From an uncultured Bacilli bacterium (GTDB lineage Bacteria > Bacillota_I > Bacilli_A > RFN20 > CAG-826): a stretch of 64,000 nucleotides of DNA. The stretch lies in the NCBI GenBank assembly GCA_934700895.1, contig CAKUXV010000001.1:60070-124069 (forward strand). The letters run 5' to 3'. Of this stretch, positions 7,238 through 53,775 are shown one piece after another; the stretch's first letter is position 1; every line of letters starts with the position of its first letter. The translations under genes and the position numbers were made by a program. The notes beneath the pieces are model-generated. The model was not told the DNA's origin. It saw only the letters and a program-made list of their open reading frames with translations, and did not search any database.

Positions 7238-9856
7238 ATGAAGAAATTAGAATTACGTTATGGGCAACCTGCGCCCATGAATATCGAAGGATGGGAAAAA
7301 TATTCCCTTCCGATTGGAAATGGGTATTTCGGTGCAAGTGTGTTCGGCGGGATTGAAGACGAGGAAATCCAATTCACCACGAATGAATATGCGAACGATT
7401 ATCCACATGGGGGTGTTTCCTCCTTTTCGGAGATTCATATCGCCTATCAACCTAAAAATAACATCTCGGACTACATCCGTTCTTTGTCTCTTCGAACCGG
7501 GTGCGCGTCTTCTTCGTTTTTCGATGGAAGCAATCACATCCAAAAGGAATGCTTTTGTTCTTATCCCGATCATTGCTTTGCTTTTTCCATCGAAGCGAAT
7601 CAACCCATCGATTTGAATATCGGCCTCCTCATCTCCTATTTGGGAAAGCGCAGCATTGAAGATGGCGGAAGAGAAGGACGCGTCTATTTTGAAAAAAATG
7701 TTCTTGTGATGCGAGGAACCCATCCTGCCAAAAATCTGATTTACGAAGGACGGCTGGGAGTTATTTCCAATGGAAAAGTGGAACAAAAAGAAATGAGTTT
7801 TTGCATCAAAGGAGCGACCCACGTATCGATTTTCTATGCGGCAGGGACTTCTTATTTGCTTTGTCCAAAGACTTTCTTCAGCCATAAGGCGGAAGGGAAA
7901 GATCCTCATGAAGATGTTACGAAGCGTCTTCAAAATGCGATGGGGATTGGCTATGCCGAGTTAAAAGAACGCCATGTCCAAGATTACGTCTCCTTAATGG
8001 GCCGCGTGGATTTGGATCTTGGAGGAAAAGAAGATGCCCGTTATACGGATGAATTATTAGAAAGCTTCCGCCAAGGCGAATCCATCCCGTATTTAGAAGA
8101 GCTGTATTTCCAATATGGACGCCACCTTTTGGTTTCTTCTTCTCGGAAAGGCAGCTTGCCTGCTTCCTTGCAAGGAGTATGGACGGCCCACGATAAATCG
8201 CCGTGGGGGAGCGGATTCTGGCATAACATCAATATCCAGATGAATTATTGGCCGGCTTTTGTGACGAATCTTGGCAAGACTTTTGATGCCTACGCGGATT
8301 TCTTCTTGGCCTATTTGCCTTATGCTCAAACGAGTGCCTCTAAATGGGTGCAGGAAGAAAATCCCACCTCCTATGAAGAAGGGGAAGGAAAATGCGGTTG
8401 GATCATCGGAACGGGTGCTTTTGCCTATGAAATTGAGGGCATGCGTCATCAAACCCATTCGGGCCCTGGGACCGGAGGAATGACCAGTCGTTTGTTCTAT
8501 GATGCCTACGCCTTTACCTTGGATCAGGATTTTGCAGCCAAATACGTTGAACCTGCGGTCCACGGCATGGCGAAATTCTTTGTCCGCTGCGTCAAAAAAT
8601 ATGACGATAAATATCTTTGCTCGTATTCTGCTTCCCCCGAACAGCTTCTGGGCGGACACTGGGTATTAAGCGATCCTGCCCAGCAATATTATCACACGGT
8701 TGGCTGCGCGTTTGATGAGCAAATGATGCAGGATAATGCTTTAAACGACCTACGTATCGCCGCAGTTTTAGGAAAAGAAGACGACACGACGAAATTAGAA
8801 CGTCTTCAAGCCAACCATTATGATCCTGTCCAAATCGGTTACAGCGGACAAATCAAGGAATACCAAGAAGAACATTTCTATGGGGAAATCGGCGAATATC
8901 ATCACCGTCATCTTTCTCAACTCGTTGGCTTGATGCCGGGAAGCTTAATCACCCATCAAACCCCTGCTTGGTTAGACGCGGCAAAACGCACCTTGGAACT
9001 TCGCGGGGATTTCTCTACTGGTTGGGCTTTGGCGCACCGCCTTTGCTGCTGGGCTCGTGTTGGGGATGGTGACCATTGCTATCGTTTGCTGAGAATGCTC
9101 CTAGAAAAGAAGACCCACCCGAACCTTTGGGACGTCCATCCGCCTTTCCAAATCGATGGAAATTTCGGAGCAACAGCAGGCATCGCCGAAATGCTCCTTC
9201 AAAGTCATGAAGGATATATTTCTTTGCTGCCTGCCTTGCCTTCTGCTTGGAAAAAGGTGTCTTTCCGCGGACTAAAAGCCCGTGGCAATTTTGAAATTTC
9301 TTGTTGTTATGAAAACGGCGTGATTCAAGAAGTTCGTCTTCTCTCCCTGAAAGGGCAAGAGGCACGGATTCGTTACGAGGGCATTACCCACGCGATTCAG
9401 GTGGAAAGCGAAGAAGGGGTGTACGCCAACGTCGAAGGGGCGGAAGTCTCTTTCCCAACGATTCCAGGGCATACCTATGTGATAAAAGGGTTTGTTCCTT
9501 TAGAAGTCTTTGCCCCCGTTGAATGTTTTCAAGCTTCTTATGCGATGGACGGCGTGCATCTATCTTGGCAAGGAAGCGGGCCTTTCGCTTTGTATCGCGC
9601 GGAAGGGGACTCCCCCCGTTACCAATTGCTTGCCGTGTTAGAACGTTCTTCTTTCCTCGACAAGGACTTTTCGATGAAGCGAAAGGGGAGACTAACTTAC
9701 AAAGTGATGCCCGCTCACCGGGCAAGCCAAGAGAAAAATGGGGCTTTGGCCTTCCTTTCTCCCGCTAGTGAGTTAGAAGAAGATCGTTACCAACTAAAAA
9801 TCGCGGTGAATAACCAATTCGCTGAGAAGATTGGCTGGAGCGAAAAAGACGATTAA
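7238..9856 (+). CDS. Glycoside hydrolase family 95 (alpha-L-fucosidase, AfcA-like), cytoplasmic
   Basis: 872 aa. The N-terminus LELRYGQPAPMNIEGWEKYSLPIGNGYFGASVFGGIEDEEIQFTTNEY matches the GH95 signature (W..ALPIGNG.LGAMVFGG...E.IQLNE). AAGGTGG RBS precedes the start. Confidence 0.85.
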   Translation: MKKLELRYGQPAPMNIEGWEKYSLPIGNGYFGASVFGGIEDEEIQFTTNEYANDYPHGGVSSFSEIHIAYQPKNNISDYIRSLSLRTGCASSSFFDGSNHIQKECFCSYPDHCFAFSIEANQPIDLNIGLLISYLGKRSIEDGGREGRVYFEKNVLVMRGTHPAKNLIYEGRLGVISNGKVEQKEMSFCIKGATHVSIFYAAGTSYLLCPKTFFSHKAEGKDPHEDVTKRLQNAMGIGYAELKERHVQDYVSLMGRVDLDLGGKEDARYTDELLESFRQGESIPYLEELYFQYGRHLLVSSSRKGSLPASLQGVWTAHDKSPWGSGFWHNINIQMNYWPAFVTNLGKTFDAYADFFLAYLPYAQTSASKWVQEENPTSYEEGEGKCGWIIGTGAFAYEIEGMRHQTHSGPGTGGMTSRLFYDAYAFTLDQDFAAKYVEPAVHGMAKFFVRCVKKYDDKYLCSYSASPEQLLGGHWVLSDPAQQYYHTVGCAFDEQMMQDNALNDLRIAAVLGKEDDTTKLERLQANHYDPVQIGYSGQIKEYQEEHFYGEIGEYHHRHLSQLVGLMPGSLITHQTPAWLDAAKRTLELRGDFSTGWALAHRLCCWARVGDGDHCYRLLRMLLEKKTHPNLWDVHPPFQIDGNFGATAGIAEMLLQSHEGYISLLPALPSAWKKVSFRGLKARGNFEISCCYENGVIQEVRLLSLKGQEARIRYEGITHAIQVESEEGVYANVEGAEVSFPTIPGHTYVIKGFVPLEVFAPVECFQASYAMDGVHLSWQGSGPFALYRAEGDSPRYQLLAVLERSSFLDKDFSMKRKGRLTYKVMPAHRASQEKNGALAFLSPASELEEDRYQLKIAVNNQFAEKIGWSEKDD

Positions 9857-10392
9857 AGAAGAGAACTTTCTTGAAGCGGGGATAAGATGATACGCCCCGC
9901 TTTTCTTGTTTGGGGGATATCGATGATCCGTTGATTGGTAGACCCGCGGAAATTTAAAGAGATGTTTTTGTTTTCTTCTTGAAAGGGTCCATCCACGAGG
10001 ATATCAATTTTATCTAAAATGGAATTCGTGAAGGGCGTGTAGCGTTTTCCGCCTGGCAAAAGGTCTTCGTAATGGAATCCGGTATACATCCAAATGGTCT
10101 TTTTAGGGTTCATTTCGTGGACGCGTTTAACTAAAGGGAGAAGGGCGGGCTGATTTTCGATTTCAAAGGGTTCGCCTCCTAAAATCGTTAATCCGTCGTA
10201 GTAGGATTTTTTTAGTTCTTCGATGATTTTATCTTCCACCTCTTGGGTATAGGGCTCTCCAAAAGAGAAGTCCCAAGTTTCGGGCTGAAAGCATCCCGGA
10301 CAATGATTCGTGCATCCCGAAACAAATAAGGTGAGACGAATCCCCACTCCGTTAGCACTGTCGGCGATCATGATTTGTCCGTAATGCATCAT
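9853..10392 (-). CDS. nrdG: Anaerobic ribonucleoside-triphosphate reductase activating protein (radical SAM)
   Basis: MMHYGQIMIADSANGVGIRLTLFVSGCTNHCPGCFQPETW carries the CxxxCxxC radical-SAM cluster. It lies immediately downstream of nrdD. The start was chosen at the MMHYGQ methionine. Confidence 0.85.
   Translation of the reverse strand: MMHYGQIMIADSANGVGIRLTLFVSGCTNHCPGCFQPETWDFSFGEPYTQEVEDKIIEELKKSYYDGLTILGGEPFEIENQPALLPLVKRVHEMNPKKTIWMYTGFHYEDLLPGGKRYTPFTNSILDKIDILVDGPFQEENKNISLNFRGSTNQRIIDIPQTRKAGRIILSPLQESSLL
9873..9910. terminator. Hairpin plus T-tract downstream of the GH95 gene (lies inside the 3' end of convergent nrdG)
   Basis: AAGCGGGG-loop-CCCCGCTT followed by TTTCTTGTTT. Confidence 0.35.
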
Positions 10393-10437
10393 TGTCCTCC
10401 TATCGAAAAGCCACAAGGAATCCCTGTGGCTTCTATT

Positions 10438-12753
10438 CTACTTGTTTTCTTCCGCTTTTTTCTTTTCGGCTTCTTCGTCCAAGGTGTCTAGGCTTAGGTG
10501 CAGGACGCGGTCTTGGATTTCCTGCGTGCGGCCTTGATTCCAGAACTGGGTGCCGATATATCCGCAGGTTCTACGGGCGACGTGCATCTTGCTTTGGTCG
10601 CGGTTGCCACAATTGGGGCATTCCCAAACAAGTTTTCCGGTTTCGTCTTTGACGATTTTGATTTCGCCGGTATAGCCGCAATTCTCACAAAGGTCGCTCT
10701 TGGTGTTGAGCTCCGCGTAGACGATCGTGTTGTAGATATGTTTCATGATTGCAAGAACCGCAGGGATGTTATTCTGCATGTTCGGAACTTCAACATAGCT
10801 CACGGCTCCGCCCGGAGAAAGCTGTTGGAACTGAGCTTCCTTGGTCAATTTATCGAAGGCGTTGATCTTTTCACGGACATTGACGTGATAAGAATTGGTG
10901 ATGTAGTTATGGTCGGTGACCCCGGGGATGATGCCGAAACGCTTCTGGAGGCACTTGGCGAATTTGTAGGTTGTGGATTCCAAAGGAGTACCATAGACGG
11001 AGTAGTCGATGTTTTCCTCTCTCTTCCATTTAGCGCAGGAATCATTGAGAAGTTTCATGACGCGAATGCCGAATTCTTCGCCTTCTCCAGAAGTGTGGGA
11101 AATGCCTTTCATGTAATAGACGCATTCGGCGAGTCCGGCATAGCCCAAAGAAATCGTGGAATAGCCATTGAAGAGAAGCTTATCAATGGTTTCTCCTGGC
11201 TTTAAGCGGGCCAAAGCCCCATCTTGCCAAAGAATCGGAGCTACGTCACTGGGGGTGCCGAGCAAACGTTTGTGCCGAAGTTGCAAAGCACGGTGGCAGA
11301 GTTCCAGACGATCGTGGAAGATCTCCCAGAATCGTTCTTCGTCTTTGCCGCTAGAGCAAGCGACATCAACGAGGTTAATGGTGACAACGCCCTGATTGAA
11401 ACGGCCATAGTAGCGGTGCTTGCCGGGAACGTAATCCAAAGCATTTGCAATGTTGCCAATGCCCGCATCGGTGAAGCGGTCCGGAGTTAAGAAGGAACGG
11501 CAGCCCATGCAGGGATAGCAATCGCCCTTCAATTCGAACATCTTCTTTTCGGAGATGTAGTCGGGGACCATACGCTTGGCCGTGCATTCCGCGGCCAATT
11601 TTGTCAAATAAAAATAGGGAGTGCCTTCATCGATGTTATCGTCCTGGAGGACGTAGATGAGCTTAGGGAAAGCCGGGGTGATATATTGCCCAGTGCGGTC
11701 TTTAACTCCAAGGATACGTTGCTTGAGCATGACTTCGATAATGAGAGCGAGGTCATCCCGAGTGCGGCCTTCCGGGACTTCGTGGAGATAGAGGAAAACG
11801 GTCACGAAAGGAGCTTGGCCGTTGGTGGATTGCAAGGTGATCAGCTGATATTGGATGGTTTGGCAGCCCGTTTCGATTTCCTTGCGGACTTCTTGTTCCA
11901 CCAAGTGATTGAATTTATCGCTGGAGGTTTCGATGCCGGCGGCTTCGAATTCCGCTTTCAAACGTTTGGCGATTCTCTTGCGCGAAACGTCGACAAACGG
12001 AGCCAAGTGGCTCATGGTGATGGTTTGTCCACCATATTGGCTCGAAGCGACCTGAGCTACGATTTGGCTGGCGACGGTGCAAGCGACGGAGAAGCTATGC
12101 GGGGTATCGATATGAGTGCCCGAAATGCAGGTTCCATTTTGAAGCATGTCGTCGAGATTGACGAGGTCACAGTTGTGCTCGTGCTGGGCAAAATAGTCGG
12201 CGTCGTGGAAGTGGATGATGCCTTCGCGGTGAGCTTGAACGATGTCGTCGCTAAGCAAATAACGGCCTGTATAATAACGGCTCCATTCTCCAGCCATGTA
12301 GTCGCGTTGAACGGAAAGAATCGTCGGATTCTTGTTGGAGTTTTCTTGTTTGACCTCTTCGTTAGAACGTTCGACAACGCCAGCGATTTTTTGGTCGATG
12401 TCGCTCATTTTTCGGTTCTCGCCGTGCTTATATCGATAGGTGATGTAAAGACGGGCAACCTTATATTTGCCGGTGCCCATCAAGGCATCCTCGACTTTGT
12501 CTTGAATTTCTTCTACGGACAAATCGCGCCCCGCATTCGCGGCATCCTTCATGATGCCATAGGCGATTCCATTGATTTGCTCTTCGGTTAGACGTTCGGA
12601 AACGATGCCTTCTTCTTCGTTAGCACCGCGGATAGCTTCCACGATTTTCATGCGATCAAAACCCATGCGTTCGCCCGAACGCTTCATGACGCAGATTTTT
12701 GGTTCCTCAATATCTAAGTTCCCATCGAGACTTTCGTCGTAAATAGCTGTCAT
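10438..12753 (-). CDS. nrdD: Anaerobic ribonucleoside-triphosphate reductase (class III RNR)
   Basis: N-terminal ATP-cone (KRSGERMGFDRMKIVEAI). The C-terminus has the glycyl-radical motif RTCGYIG and the zinc ribbon CENCGY...CPNCGN. Start chosen at MTAIYDES, which has a GAGGAG RBS. Confidence 0.9.
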   Translation of the reverse strand: MTAIYDESLDGNLDIEEPKICVMKRSGERMGFDRMKIVEAIRGANEEEGIVSERLTEEQINGIAYGIMKDAANAGRDLSVEEIQDKVEDALMGTGKYKVARLYITYRYKHGENRKMSDIDQKIAGVVERSNEEVKQENSNKNPTILSVQRDYMAGEWSRYYTGRYLLSDDIVQAHREGIIHFHDADYFAQHEHNCDLVNLDDMLQNGTCISGTHIDTPHSFSVACTVASQIVAQVASSQYGGQTITMSHLAPFVDVSRKRIAKRLKAEFEAAGIETSSDKFNHLVEQEVRKEIETGCQTIQYQLITLQSTNGQAPFVTVFLYLHEVPEGRTRDDLALIIEVMLKQRILGVKDRTGQYITPAFPKLIYVLQDDNIDEGTPYFYLTKLAAECTAKRMVPDYISEKKMFELKGDCYPCMGCRSFLTPDRFTDAGIGNIANALDYVPGKHRYYGRFNQGVVTINLVDVACSSGKDEERFWEIFHDRLELCHRALQLRHKRLLGTPSDVAPILWQDGALARLKPGETIDKLLFNGYSTISLGYAGLAECVYYMKGISHTSGEGEEFGIRVMKLLNDSCAKWKREENIDYSVYGTPLESTTYKFAKCLQKRFGIIPGVTDHNYITNSYHVNVREKINAFDKLTKEAQFQQLSPGGAVSYVEVPNMQNNIPAVLAIMKHIYNTIVYAELNTKSDLCENCGYTGEIKIVKDETGKLVWECPNCGNRDQSKMHVARRTCGYIGTQFWNQGRTQEIQDRVLHLSLDTLDEEAEKKKAEENK

Positions 12754-12996
12754 AACGATACTCCTCAAGACGCTAGAGAAAGACAAGCGTCCTTCTCTTT
12801 CATTGCTGACGAGTCCTCATTTTAGGCGCGCAAGAGAATGTTGCAACAAGAGAGGACCAAAGTTTTGACAACGTCCTATAAAGAGGTCAAAAAGCCCGAA
12901 AAATTGGGAAAGGAGCTTTGGGTTATTTTGCTTGATTTCTTCTTTCTTCCATGTATCTTGCTAGAGTCGATATTGAAACGCTCGACATTGCTATTT

Positions 12997-13683
12997 ATGA
13001 AAACCAAGACGCCATGCCAACAATGCCCTTCTCCATGCGTATCTGCATGGCTTTTTGAGGAAGACCAAAAGCAAGGGAAAAAGGATTCGCTTTTTGCTTC
13101 GGCTATTCGGTCGACGTATCAAAAAGGCGATGCGATTTTTTCTCTTGGCGATCCTGCAGACTCCCTTTATTTGATCCATAAAGGGAATATCAAACTCGTG
13201 AATTACGATTCGGATGGTAGGGAAAAGATTGTCGCGTTTTTTGGCAAGGGTGAATGGATTTGGGAGGGATTATTCCTCGAACAGCCCACATTCCCCTTTC
13301 ATGGTGTTGCCATGGATGAAGTGGTGGTTTGCAAAGTCCCAGCTTCCATTGTTCGGAATCATCTAAAAGACGGGCGTGGCGCCTTGTCCGTCATCGAGAT
13401 TCTTTCGAAAAAACTCCACGATGCGAATGAGCGGAATATGATTCTTTCTACGACGGACCCCAAAGCCAAGATTGCTCGACTATTTGCTTATCGCGCTTCC
13501 CAATTTCATAGTGATTCCTTTTCGATGAAATTAAGTGACATCGCTTCGGCGGTATCCCTTCGCCCCGAGACCGTATCCCGAAAAATCGGCGAATTGCTTC
13601 AAGAAGGTGTTCTTGAAAAGAAGAGCCGTTCCCATTTCCGGATTTGCGATTTCGATGCGTTGGTGGAAATCGCCAATTCTTGA
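12997..13683 (+). CDS. fnr: Crp/Fnr-family transcriptional regulator, FNR-like (putative O2-sensing Fe-S regulator)
   Basis: The cNMP-binding-like beta-roll (DSLYLIHKGNIKLVNYDSDGREKIVAFFGKGEWIWEG) is present. N-terminal Cys-x2-Cys-x3-Cys plus a fourth Cys about 98 residues later mirrors the E. coli FNR cluster spacing. The C-terminal HTH has the recognition helix ETVSR (E..SR, FNR-type specificity). Start chosen at MKTKTPCQQC. Confidence 0.75.
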   Translation: MKTKTPCQQCPSPCVSAWLFEEDQKQGKKDSLFASAIRSTYQKGDAIFSLGDPADSLYLIHKGNIKLVNYDSDGREKIVAFFGKGEWIWEGLFLEQPTFPFHGVAMDEVVVCKVPASIVRNHLKDGRGALSVIEILSKKLHDANERNMILSTTDPKAKIARLFAYRASQFHSDSFSMKLSDIASAVSLRPETVSRKIGELLQEGVLEKKSRSHFRICDFDALVEIANS

Positions 13684-13693
13684 TTGAAATCAA
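13680..13693. promoter_or_regulatory. FNR box TTGATTGAAATCAA upstream of pflA
   Basis: Perfect TTGAT-N4-ATCAA palindrome, about 50 nt upstream of the pflA ATG and just after the fnr stop. Confidence 0.7.
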
Positions 13694-13743
13694 GGAATTT
13701 TTGATATTTTGGAAAGATAATAAGCACGTTGAAAGGATTTTTG

Positions 13744-14484
13744 ATGCAAGGAAACATTCATTCGATCGAAACATTTGGATCCCTGGATGGTCCAGGAATC
13801 CGTTTTGTTATCTTTTTGAAGGGCTGCCCCTTGCGTTGCCTTTATTGTCATAACCCCGATACGTGGGCGACTCCCGGCGGGGAACTTCGCTCGGCGGATT
13901 CGATTCTGGAACAGGCATTACGTTACCAATCCTATTGGGGTGAAGAAGGCGGCATCACCGTCAGCGGGGGAGAACCCTTGCTTCAAATCGAATTCTTGAC
14001 GGAGTTATTTACGAAAGCCAAGAAAAAAAGGATATCCACCTGCATCGACACATCAGGATCGCCGTTTACAAGAGAAGAGCCATTCTTCTCCCGCTTTCAA
14101 AGCCTTATGAAGGTGACGGACTTGCTGCTTGTCGACATCAAGGAAATCAATGACAAAAAGCACCGTGTCCTGACGGGAAGAAGCAACGAAAATATTCTAG
14201 ATATGCTTCATTACTTGGATGAAATCCATAAACCTGTGTGGATTCGCCATGTCTTAGTGCCTGGATACACGGATTTCGACGAGGATTTGAAAGCAACGAG
14301 CCGCTTCATCGATAGTCTTCATAACGTAGAACGGGTTGAAGTGCTCCCCTTCCATAAAATGGGAGAATTCAAGTGGAAGGAACTTCATTTGGATTATTCG
14401 CTTGGGGAGGTAGAGCCCCCATCGAATGAACGAGTGAAAAACGCGGAAAACATTCTTAGAAAAAAACGAAGCGAAATTGATTGA
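13744..14484 (+). CDS. pflA: Pyruvate formate-lyase activating enzyme (radical SAM)
   Basis: [41 protein letters not shown] has the CxxxCxxC cluster and the typical PflA N-terminus. Confidence 0.9.
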
Positions 14485-14490
14485 AATCAA
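14477..14490. promoter_or_regulatory. FNR box TTGATTGAAATCAA upstream of pflB
   Basis: Second identical perfect TTGAT-N4-ATCAA palindrome, 55 nt upstream of the pflB ATG. Confidence 0.7.
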
Positions 14491-14545
14491 AGAATCGCTG
14501 CCTCTAAACTCTCAAAATATTGCACGTTCCCACAGGAGGGAAAAC

Positions 14546-16798
14546 ATGGAACAAAAATTACAATGGGAGGGCTTTGCCCCCGGACACTGGAATGAAGACG
14601 TCAATGTCCGTGACTTCATTCAACGCAATTATACGGAATATCAAGGAGACGCATCCTTTTTGGAGGGGCCAAGTAATGCGACCGAAACGCTTTGGAACAT
14701 GGTGCAGGATTTGCAGCATCAAGAACGTGCAAAAGGCGGAGTTTTGGACATGGAAACCGAGGTTGTTTCCTCTATTAATGCCTACGGCCCCGCTTATATT
14801 GGCGAAAAAACCAAAGAATTAGAGAAAGTAGTTGGCCTCCAAACCGACAAGCCATTAAAGCGCGCCTTTATGCCTTATGGTGGCATTAAGATGGCAGAAA
14901 AAGCCTGCCAAACCTATGGCTATACCCCCAATCCCGAACTCCACAAAATCTTCACGGATTATCACAAGACTCACAACCAGGCGGTCTTCGATGCTTATAC
15001 TCCGGAGATGAAATTGGTCCGTCACAACAAAATCTTAACGGGTCTTCCTGATGCCTATGGCCGCGGCAGAATCGTTGGCGATTATCGCCGCATCGCCCTT
15101 TACGGCATTGATTTCTTGCTGCAACAAAAAGAAGAAGACCTCGCCGAATGCGGAGACGGCACGATGACGGAGGACGTCATCCGCTTGCGCGAAGAAATCG
15201 CGGATCAGATGAAGGCCCTTCGTGAAATGAAACAAATGGCTGCCTCGTTTGGTTTTGATATTTCTCAACCGGCCAAAGACGCCAAAGAAGCGGTGCAATG
15301 GCTCTATTTTGGTTACCTCGCCGCTATCCGCACGCAAAATGGCGCGGCGATGTCGGTAGGTCGCATCTCCACGTTCCTTGATATTTATATCGAACGCGAT
15401 TTACGCAAGGGCCTCATTACCGAAGCGGAAGCCCAAGAGCTCATCGACCATTTGGTCATGAAGCTCCGCATGGTTAAATTTGCTCGCATCCCCTCCTACA
15501 ATCAACTTTTCTCTGGCGACCCCGTTTGGGCGACCCTCGAAGTTGGCGGCATGGGGCAAGATGGCCGCAGCTTAGTGACCAAAAGCGATTTCCGTTTCCT
15601 CCACACTTTGGAGAACATGGGACCTGCTCCGGAACCCAACCTCACGGTTTTGTATTCCAAACGCCTCCCTGCCGGATTTAAGTCCTATGCGGCGAATATC
15701 TCGGTGAAAACCAGTTCCATTCAATATGAAAACGATGATGTGATGCGCCCGGTTTGGGGAGATGATTATTCGATTTGCTGCTGCGTCTCCGCGACGGAAA
15801 CGGGCAAGGAAATGCAATTCTTCGGTGCACGCGCGAACTTGGCTAAATGCTTGTTATACGCGATCAATGGCGGCGTTGACGAAAAAACGCACGACCAAGT
15901 GGGTCCGCGTTATCGCCCGATTACTTCCGAATATTTGGATTACGAAGAAGTCATGGAGCGTTATGACGACATGATGGAATGGCTCGCGGGCATTTACGTC
16001 AATGTCTTGAACCTCATCCAATACATGCACGACCGTTATTATTACGAGGCGGCTGAAATGGCTCTCATCGATACGGATGTCCGTCGCACGTTTGCTACGG
16101 GTATCGCGGGTTTCTCCCATGTTGTCGATAGTCTTTCCGCGATTCGCTATGCCAAAGTGAAAACCATCCGCGACGAAACGGGCTTGGTGGTTGATTATGA
16201 AATTGAGGGCGACTTCCCTCGTTACGGCAATGACGATGACCGCGTGGACAATATTGCTGTATGGTTATTGAAGACCTTCATGAAGAAGATCAAAAAACAC
16301 CACACCTATCGCGATTCCGAACCCACGACTTCGATCCTGACGATCACTTCCAACGTCGTTTACGGCAAAGCCACGGGTTCGATGCCGGATGGCCGCAAAG
16401 CGGGAGAACCACTCTCCCCGGGCGCCAACCCCGCTTATGGAGCGGAGAAAAACGGCTTGCTTGCCTCCCTCAACTCGGTGGCAAAACTCCCCTATGAATA
16501 TGCTTTGGATGGTATTTCCAACACGCAGACGATTGCCCCGAATACCCTTGGAAAAACGGATGCGGAACGAGTGAAAAACCTCGTTTCTGTCCTCGATGGC
16601 TATTTTGATAAAGGCGCCCATCACCTTAACGTCAACGTCTTTGGGATCGATAAACTCAAAGACGCGATGGAACACCCGGAAAAACCGGAATATGCGAATT
16701 TCACAATCCGCGTCTCTGGCTATGCGGTCAAATTCATCGATTTGACGAAAGAACAACAGTTAGACGTTATCGCTCGCCATGCGCACGAATCGCTCTAA
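14546..16798 (+). CDS. pflB: Formate C-acetyltransferase (pyruvate formate-lyase)
   Basis: About 750 aa. The C-terminal glycyl-radical motif RVSGYAVKF is present and the active-site CC dyad sits in ...YSICCCVSA.... AGGAGGG RBS precedes the ATG at 14546. Confidence 0.9.
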
Positions 16799-36931: not shown

Positions 36932-37090
36932 TGAAGAGGCTTCAGGGCGACGAGAATTACGTCGACTGGCGGTATAGCCCGCGAGCCGAAAGGCACGATT
37001 TGGTGAAATTCCAAAGCCAACGGTACAGTCCGGATGGAAGAAAGCGCAGAACGATGTTTTGCCTCTGGAGCGTATGCTTAGGAGGCTTTT
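36932..37090 (+). ncRNA. FMN riboswitch (RFN element) with an RBS-sequestering expression platform
   Basis: The conserved RFN blocks are present: CUGGCGGUAUAGCCCGCGAGC ... GGUGAAAUUCCAAAGCCAACGGUACAGUCCGGAUGGAAGAAAG. They parallel the B. subtilis ribD leader (CCGGCGGUA...AGCCCG...GGUGGAUUC...AAGCCGACAGUGAAAGUCUGGAUGGGAGAAGG). GCCTCT at about 37061 can pair either with the P1 5' strand AGAGGC or with the RBS AGGAGGC. Confidence 0.8.
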
Positions 37091-37093
37091 TCT

Positions 37094-37825
37094 ATGAAAT
37101 GGTTAGCCGTGGGGCTACTTAGCGCCGTTTTGCTTATCGGCATTATCGTGGCCATGATTTTGGCCAAAAAACGTCCCGATTATAATGGGACGAGGCTCGT
37201 GGCCCGCGTTGGGATTTTCGGGGCGCTGTCCACGATTTTATATTGCGTACCCATTTTCAATATCCCCTTGCCCTTTTTCCCTTCCTTTTTGAAGATCCAC
37301 TTGGATGAATTGCCCGCGTTTATTTGCGGCTTTGCCTATGGACCCTTATCGGGATTCTTGGTCCTATTCGTTAAAACAATCATCAAATTGCCGTTAACCA
37401 ATACAATGTGCGTTGGGGAATTTGGGGATTTATTGCTCAGCTCCCTTTATTGTCTTCCCGCGACTTGGATTTATAAGCACTTCCGAACTTTAAAAGGCGC
37501 GATTGTTGGCATGGGCGTAGCCACGGTCATCCAAGTTTTGGGAGCCATGTTGTTCAACGTTTATATCCTGATTCCTTTCTATGTCTTCATGATGGGAATG
37601 GAAGAGACGTCGTTATTGGCGTTGATGCAGAAGGCCATGCCGATGATTAGCGACGTGAAATGGAGCTATGGCCTCATTGCCGTTTTGCCCTTCAACCTTT
37701 TAAAGGATGCGGTGATTACGGTTTTGACCTTCGTCCTTTATCATTTCCTTCATAAACCGTTGCGGTTAGAGAAGAAGACACCGAAAAAAGAGACTTTGGA
37801 AACAACAAACAAATCCTCCAATTAA
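37094..37825 (+). CDS. ribU: ECF transporter S component, probable riboflavin transporter RibU
   Basis: 243 aa with about 6 TM helices. The ARVGIFGALSTILY motif is typical of ECF S components. It is preceded by an FMN riboswitch. Confidence 0.75.
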   Translation: MKWLAVGLLSAVLLIGIIVAMILAKKRPDYNGTRLVARVGIFGALSTILYCVPIFNIPLPFFPSFLKIHLDELPAFICGFAYGPLSGFLVLFVKTIIKLPLTNTMCVGEFGDLLLSSLYCLPATWIYKHFRTLKGAIVGMGVATVIQVLGAMLFNVYILIPFYVFMMGMEETSLLALMQKAMPMISDVKWSYGLIAVLPFNLLKDAVITVLTFVLYHFLHKPLRLEKKTPKKETLETTNKSSN

Positions 37826-53690: not shown

Positions 53691-53775
53691 GCACTGGTGG
53701 CGGAATTGGTATACGCGCTAGTCTCAGGAGCTAGTCGGGCAACCGGTGTGGGTTCGACTCCCATCCAGTGCACCA
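53691..53775 (+). tRNA. tRNA-Leu (anticodon CAG)
   Basis: Acceptor stem GCACUGG/CCAGUGC, anticodon loop CUCAGGA, long variable arm, T-arm GGUUCGACUCC, and an encoded CCA (ACCA at the 3' end). Confidence 0.85.

Follow-up and report, generated by a model that had tools for sequence, protein, structure and literature searches.

Which regulator governs the pyruvate formate-lyase genes of an uncultured Bacilli bacterium, and to what signal it responds, are the questions raised by a 64,000-nucleotide stretch of contig CAKUXV010000001.1 (G+C content, 46%; the whole stretch is referred to below as the window). The region of interest comprises five genes, nrdG, nrdD, a Crp/Fnr-family gene, pflA and pflB, whose identities are backed by Pfam and NCBIfam, and two identical palindromes stand ahead of pflA and pflB. 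On balance, we favor the view that the Crp/Fnr protein is a local activator of pflAB, and that its activity is probably controlled by an oxygen-labile iron-sulfur (Fe-S) cluster in some way other than monomerization. The elements on which this proposal turns are listed here (PDB, Protein Data Bank; nt, nucleotides).

12997..13683, + strand: Crp/Fnr-family regulator gene, 228 amino acids, FNR-like and pfl-linked (Pfam; best PDB match, Aliivibrio fischeri FNR)
13567..13581, + strand: codons of E191-T-V-S-R195, recognition helix (direct read; aligns with FNR ETISR)
13744..14484, + strand: pflA, pyruvate formate-lyase activating enzyme (TIGR02493, 306 bits versus a cut-off of 232)
14546..16798, + strand: pflB, formate C-acetyltransferase (TIGR01255, 1166 bits versus a cut-off of 994)
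13680..13693, no strand assigned: box 1, TTGATTGAAATCAA, predicted operator of the pflA promoter, including the TGA stop of the regulator gene (sequence, shuffles, relatives)
14477..14490, no strand assigned: box 2, TTGATTGAAATCAA, predicted operator of the pflB promoter, including the TGA stop of pflA (sequence, shuffles, relatives)
13716..13721, + strand: predicted pflA -10 element, GATAAT, 22 nt downstream of box 1; transcription predicted to begin at about 13728
14513..14518, + strand: predicted pflB -10 element, CAAAAT, 22 nt downstream of box 2; transcription predicted to begin at about 14525

The regulator and the two palindromes

The product of the regulator gene is a member of the Crp/Fnr superfamily, with a cNMP_binding domain (PF00027, 64 bits) and a helix-turn-helix domain of the type HTH_Crp_2 (PF13545, 37.5 bits), both scoring above their cut-offs. 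Its database names are generic (for example, "Crp/Fnr family transcriptional regulator"), and the nearest loci, at 93 to 96% protein identity, come from metagenome-assembled genomes of uncultured human-gut "Bacilli" or "Mollicutes." Among proteins of known structure, FNR of A. fischeri (PDB 5E44) is closest in sequence (E value of about 1e-15 with HMMER), and A. fischeri holo-FNR is also the best fold match of the AlphaFold model (template modeling score, 0.84; identity, 25%), which shows a beta-roll, a helix at residues 127 to 151 and the helix-turn-helix. In the HMMER alignment, whose numbering was checked by a hand count, Cys112 falls on FNR Cys122 and ETVSR falls on FNR ETISR. Residues E191, T192, S194 and R195 are invariant in the family alignment A1, and the earlier reading of ETVSR, here residues 191 to 195, as an FNR-type E--SR helix holds. 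The recognition-helix feature of FNR (E209, S212 and R213) and its TTGAT-N4-ATCAA operator are thus both present at this locus.

Exact matches to TTGAT-N4-ATCAA occur only twice in the 64 kb, and the two copies are identical to each other. Dinucleotide shuffles gave a mean of 0.16 matches, and 0 of 100 shuffles reached two, so that the two perfect palindromes reported in the preliminary description, one ahead of pflA and one ahead of pflB, were confirmed in the sequence and exceed the shuffled expectation. All other TTGATTNNAATCAA sites with up to two mismatches in the window lie within coding open reading frames, and none is intergenic. The distance from the box center to the ATG is 57.5 nt for pflA (13744) and 62.5 nt for pflB (14546).

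Recurrence and promoter geometry in Bacillota

A scan in which each species was represented by a single genome yielded 80 related loci (numbered with the prefix L), which were analyzed as 12.6-kb excerpts of about 0.9 Mb in all, and neighboring genes were sought by tblastn with the window proteins. All of these loci belong to Bacillota or to mixed-label metagenome bins, including Butyrivibrio, Ruminococcus, Eubacterium, Selenomonas, Erysipelotrichaceae and gut Bacilli. pflA and/or pflB adjoin the regulator gene in 63 loci, with the order regulator-pflA-pflB in 37, pflA-pflB-regulator in 14 and pflB before pflA in 2. The order in the window had been described as the reverse of the common one; pflA does precede pflB here, but there is no reversal, since pflA-pflB is the normal order in this group (51 loci versus 2).

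Together with the window excerpt, the related loci hold 71 perfect TTGAT-N4-ATCAA boxes 5′ of pflA or pflB, 68 of which are distinct in context. Positions 6 and 9 of the box were left unconstrained in the search and proved to be T and A in 68/68, indicating that the real motif is TTGATT-N2-AATCAA. The flanks are conserved as well, with AAA 5′ of the box and a G at position 16 (65/68). Because the association of regulator, pfl genes and boxes recurs in dozens of Bacillota genomes, the two boxes in the window are almost certainly operators of this regulator. Our literature search found no description of a pfl-linked Crp/Fnr regulator of Bacillota, although a published one may have escaped it, and the family appears to be uncharacterized.

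In the window, the spacing between box and predicted -10 element is exactly 22 nt at both promoters. Neither promoter has a good -35 element, and the box takes its place. When the relatives were aligned on the box, the -10 element appeared at box positions 37 to 42, with A38 in 61/68 and T42 in 53/68 and often with a TG at positions 34 and 35. An xAxxxT hexamer begins at box position 37 in 51/68 and at position 36 in 12 more, versus counts of no more than 24 at each of the other offsets. Downstream, the predicted leaders are short, with an AAAGGA ribosome-binding site 7 nt 5′ of the pflA ATG and an AGGAGG ahead of pflB. With the -10 element at -12 to -7, the box would be centered at -41.5, which is the class II site in 19 of the 23 FNR-activated Escherichia coli promoters with a known start, the focA-pflB site lying at -40.5 (PMC3688515). 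Measured from the predicted -10 elements, the alignments argue strongly for a class II activator geometry of the pfl boxes.

We propose that the 12997-13683 product would act as a dimeric activator of the Crp/Fnr family that serves only the genes of pyruvate formate-lyase. Through its E-xx-SR helix, it would read TTGATT-N2-AATCAA about 41.5 bp 5′ of the predicted starts of pflA and pflB. The bound regulator would behave as a class II activator and bring in RNA polymerase, given the poor -35 region at each promoter. With its activity gated by an oxygen-labile cluster, as considered below, a glycyl-radical enzyme and its radical S-adenosylmethionine activase, a system in which both partners are oxygen sensitive, would be made only under anoxia.

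Perfect boxes also precede genes other than pfl about a dozen times in the related loci. A box stands 21 nt 5′ of a TATAAT, ahead of a gene for a SufC-like ABC ATPase (TIGR01978, 129 bits, under the cut-off of 212.8), in L035 (2102-2115) and L070 (3757-3770); in L035, this gene is followed by an open reading frame of 335 amino acids and then by the regulator gene. In some Clostridia, these boxes hint at autoregulation and at a connection with Fe-S assembly. A perfect box lies directly 5′ of the regulator gene in L043 (5928-5941), and another is found ahead of a pyruvate/indolepyruvate:ferredoxin oxidoreductase-like gene in L029 (1950-1963). In a clade whose regulators lack the cysteines considered below, boxes at noncanonical spacing stand 5′ of a uridine-kinase-family gene (L007:3899, L008:3890, L009:3925, L011:3898 and L012:3243).

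The operators also overlap gene ends. The TGA stops of the regulator gene (13681-13683) and of pflA (14482-14484) each fall within TTGAT, the left half-site of the operator for the promoter that follows, and the same arrangement occurs in distant relatives (L001-L006, L010, L029, L031 and L071).

Cysteines, dimer interface and known relatives

The regulator contains five cysteines, at residues 7, 10, 14, 112 and 217. Three features of the protein bear on how it might sense oxygen.

13015..13038, + strand: codons of Cys7, Cys10 and Cys14 (CxxCxxxC), putative Fe-S ligands; found in 57/80 related loci and 66/121 family proteins
13330..13332, + strand: codon of Cys112, putative fourth ligand, aligned with FNR Cys122
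13423..13425, + strand: codon of Ala143, at the E. coli FNR Asp154 position in the dimerization helix; Ala in 121/121 family proteins

The ligands of E. coli FNR are Cys20, Cys23, Cys29 and Cys122 (PMC4672761). In the Bacillota family, Cys112 is present in 65 of the 66 proteins that carry the N-terminal triad versus 28 of the 55 that do not (p = 1e-10 by Fisher's test, without phylogenetic correction; the triad-less entries include some truncated gene calls). Such co-variation is indirect evidence, as the pattern expected of joint ligands of one cofactor. On a rough neighbor-joining tree, of which only the leaf order was used, the triad is absent in at least five separate groups, and in the group nearest the window protein, a series of states is seen, with Cys112 still present after loss of the triad, then replaced by Ser and then by Gly. 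Fe-S-based oxygen sensing by the regulator is likely, and the gate would most likely be an oxygen-labile cluster on Cys7, Cys10, Cys14 and Cys112. An FNR with an N-terminal cluster had been called unusual for a low-GC Gram-positive bacterium. At the level of sequence this is wrong, because the CxxCxxxC form is in the majority among these Bacillota loci.

Another cysteine varies near the fourth putative ligand. Most clostridial relatives have an additional conserved Cys (VCLT...) eight residues ahead of the Cys112 position, where the window protein has Ala (position 104). L022, L026 and L038 have Trp at the Cys112 position and keep the upstream Cys.

The dimer interface differs from that of FNR. 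In the HMMER alignment, Asp154, Glu150 and Arg140 of FNR correspond to Ala143, Lys139 and Ala129 of the regulator; Ala143 and Lys139 occur in 121/121 family proteins and Ala129 occurs in 108/121. The metastable interface behind the oxygen-dependent monomerization of FNR, built from Asp154, Glu150 and an Arg140-Asp130 salt bridge, is not matched at these positions. In E. coli FNR, the D154A protein persists as a dimer after its cluster is destroyed (PMC4672761). Given these replacements and the behavior of D154A, a monomer-dimer switch in the style of E. coli is unlikely. Since the charged residues behind monomerization of E. coli FNR have been replaced, the signal would probably be passed within a stable dimer, as is reported for Bacillus subtilis Fnr. 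Relatives without the cysteines keep both the boxes and the invariant Ala at the Asp154 position, which suggests that stable dimers are the rule in this family and that the cluster, where present, would modulate DNA binding allosterically.

The regulator resembles E. coli and A. fischeri FNR in its Crp/Fnr fold, in its N-terminal Cys triad with a further Cys at the Cys122 position, and in its E-xx-SR helix. As with E. coli FNR, the operator is TTGAT-N4-ATCAA, the predicted location of the site is of class II, near -41.5, and pyruvate formate-lyase is the predicted target (PMC3688515). It differs from FNR in its identity of only about 25%, in the extended invariant half-site TTGATT and in the existence of Cys-less members of its family; unlike the global FNR, it is apparently local, with its gene beside its targets. 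By these comparisons, it is a distinct Bacillota branch that would share the DNA specificity, the promoter geometry and the ligand positions of FNR.

Two better-known groups of Gram-positive regulators offer further comparisons. B. subtilis Fnr carries a [4Fe-4S] cluster bound by three cysteines at its C terminus, is a dimer with or without the cluster, and uses a TGTGA-type operator. Like the protein proposed here, it is a Crp/Fnr oxygen sensor of Bacillota, and it is a precedent for cluster-controlled DNA binding in which the oligomeric state stays the same. In contrast to its C-terminal ligands, the sole C-terminal cysteine of the window protein is Cys217, which lies outside the conserved columns of A1, and the operator is of the TTGAT rather than the TGTGA type. 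FLP of Lactobacillus casei and FlpA/FlpB of Lactococcus lactis are FNR-like proteins in which two cysteines form a redox-active disulfide, with no Fe-S cluster; the preferred site of FLP differs from the FNR box, and no link between FLP and pfl is known. The window protein would be, like FLP, an FNR-like regulator of a low-GC Gram-positive bacterium with N-terminal and central cysteines, but it has four of them instead of two.

Neighboring features, rival accounts and implications

On the other side of the regulator gene lie two neighbors on the minus strand, nrdD and nrdG.

10438..12753, - strand: nrdD, divergent neighbor, no box upstream (NF006732, 879 bits)
9853..10416, - strand: nrdG, given as the longest open reading frame, with the true start probably a few codons further in (TIGR02491, 170 bits)

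The preliminary description had placed the regulator between nrdDG and pflAB. This is true of the window, but adjacency to both nrdD and nrdG is confined to L001-L003 among the 80 loci. It had also found no box ahead of nrdD, and in agreement with this, the best site in the spacer (12754-12996) has 5/12 mismatches. The TTTTGAC-N16-GTCAAAA repeat that it mentioned is indeed present at 12863-12892, and it was ruled out as an operator by its right arm, which is mutated in L001-L003. Within this repeat, a perfect TTGACA at 12865-12870 (+ strand) may be the -35 element of the regulator gene. A promoter-like TTGCAA-16-TAAAAT lies on the minus strand at 12819-12846, facing nrdD.

The start of the regulator gene was examined in the same spacer. 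Its frame is open upstream to an ATG at 12838, and the database entry P0001 begins at a TTG at 12929. An in-frame TAG interrupts the upstream extension in L001-L003, and L002 has a further stop, a TGA lying four codons 5′ of the ATG; homologues in the family alignment start a few residues ahead of the first Cys. A longer N terminus, from 12838 or from 12929, was ruled out by these stops, and the ATG at 12997, as originally chosen, is thus the correct start. This ATG has no evident Shine-Dalgarno sequence. Elsewhere in the window, a flavin mononucleotide riboswitch at 36934-37049 (+ strand; Rfam RF00050, 83 bits versus a gathering score of 66) lies just 5′ of an open reading frame at 37094-37825, and a single transfer RNA gene was found at 53691-53772 (+ strand) by Rfam RF00005.

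Several observations weigh against a local pflAB activator gated by an FNR-like cluster. Four cysteines are present, as had been claimed, but not at the E. coli FNR ligand spacing, since the triad reads Cx2Cx3C here versus Cx2Cx5C in E. coli. The AlphaFold model has a predicted local distance difference test score of about 50 for residues 1 to 30 and gives no support for convergence of the four cysteines. The Cys-less relatives L005-L011 have perfect boxes at unchanged spacing before both pflA and pflB; in this family, therefore, DNA binding and activation would not intrinsically need a cluster. The Asp154 position of FNR is occupied by an invariant Ala, as in the dimer-stable D154A mutant. 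The protein is not an FNR orthologue, and it scores 49.2 bits with the NCBIfam FNR model NF008365, for which the cut-off is 228. Its status as a local regulator is provisional, as it is drawn from 64 kb of the genome. The earlier label of an FNR-type regulator can thus be kept for the fold, the Cys122 position, the recognition helix and the operator, and it fails for the cysteine spacing, the NCBIfam score and the monomerization residues.

Some of these points lend themselves to a different account, in which the regulator activates pfl through the boxes and its cysteines hold no oxygen-labile Fe-S cluster. They could serve as a thiol-disulfide switch like that of L. casei FLP or as ligands of a structural metal, or they could have an accessory role, and the signal would then be a small ligand of the beta-roll, or activation would be constitutive. 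Consistent with this account are the Cys-less relatives with identical operator and promoter geometry, the loss of the triad in several separate groups on the rough tree, the absence of the dimer-destabilizing residues of FNR from 121/121 family proteins, a cysteine spacing unlike that of FNR, and an N terminus modeled at low confidence. We nevertheless regard it as rather unlikely: four cysteines, not two, co-vary, Cys112 coincides exactly with FNR Cys122 in the alignment and is eroded only in proteins that have lost the triad, and the regulated genes are the classic enzyme pair destroyed by oxygen. The breadth of the regulon could also have been misjudged, if the protein were a global FNR-type regulator of anaerobic metabolism that controls nrdDG and many other genes and for which the pfl sites are merely the two strongest operators. 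E. coli FNR does control both focA-pflB and nrdD (PMC3688515), the regulator gene of the window sits between nrdDG and pflAB, and a few relatives have perfect boxes before SufC-like ATPase, 2-oxoacid:ferredoxin oxidoreductase-like and uridine-kinase-family genes. This breadth is improbable in view of the sites themselves, as no site upstream of nrdD has fewer than five mismatches and no other intergenic site in the 64 kb has two or fewer. It is also at odds with the relatives, where nrdDG adjacency is seen in L001-L003 only versus pfl adjacency in 63/80 loci, and where 71 perfect boxes upstream of pfl compare with about a dozen before other genes (about 0.9 Mb plus the window excerpt).

The palindromes themselves could have another function if the regulator repressed pfl, or if they were not protein operators but formed hairpins or terminators in RNA where the regulator gene and pflA end. 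Both palindromes do overlap a stop codon, that of the preceding gene, and are able in principle to form a hairpin. However, the two regions fold as RNA no better than their shuffled versions do (z-scores, -0.7 and 0.0), and there was no match to an Rfam family; on these two results, the hairpin or terminator reading was ruled out. The half-site bases are invariant across genomes, with no co-variation, and a box that stands in for the -35 element, at a constant distance of 22 nt from a conserved -10 element, occupies the position of an activator, not of a repressor. We consider repression or an RNA role, taken together, highly improbable.

The activation of pfl by FNR is a textbook concept, and the advance offered by the Fe-S-gated activator proposed here would lie in breadth and variation rather than in principle. 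Pyruvate formate-lyase sets the release of formate, which feeds methanogens, acetogens and, in the inflamed gut, Enterobacteriaceae, and oxygen sensing by the strict anaerobes of gut and rumen is poorly understood. A conserved pair of sensor and operator, with a perfect site that is readily spotted, would offer a directly testable model of how oxygen controls fermentation in Lachnospiraceae and Ruminococcaceae. For the mechanism of FNR, it would offer a natural comparison, in which the ligand positions are alike and the monomer-dimer switch is absent, and for synthetic biology in Bacillota, it would offer a compact promoter module dependent on anaerobiosis. More tentatively, the window protein may represent a widespread FNR-type branch in obligately anaerobic Bacillota (Lachnospiraceae, Ruminococcaceae, Negativicutes and Erysipelotrichales-like gut Bacilli), a permanent dimer in which a Cx2Cx3C...C Fe-S cluster gates a single local target, pfl with its activase. 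Formate production would then be tied to oxygen and/or Fe-S status by a sensor that may itself be disposable, as several gut lineages have apparently lost the four cysteines yet kept the activator and its operators.

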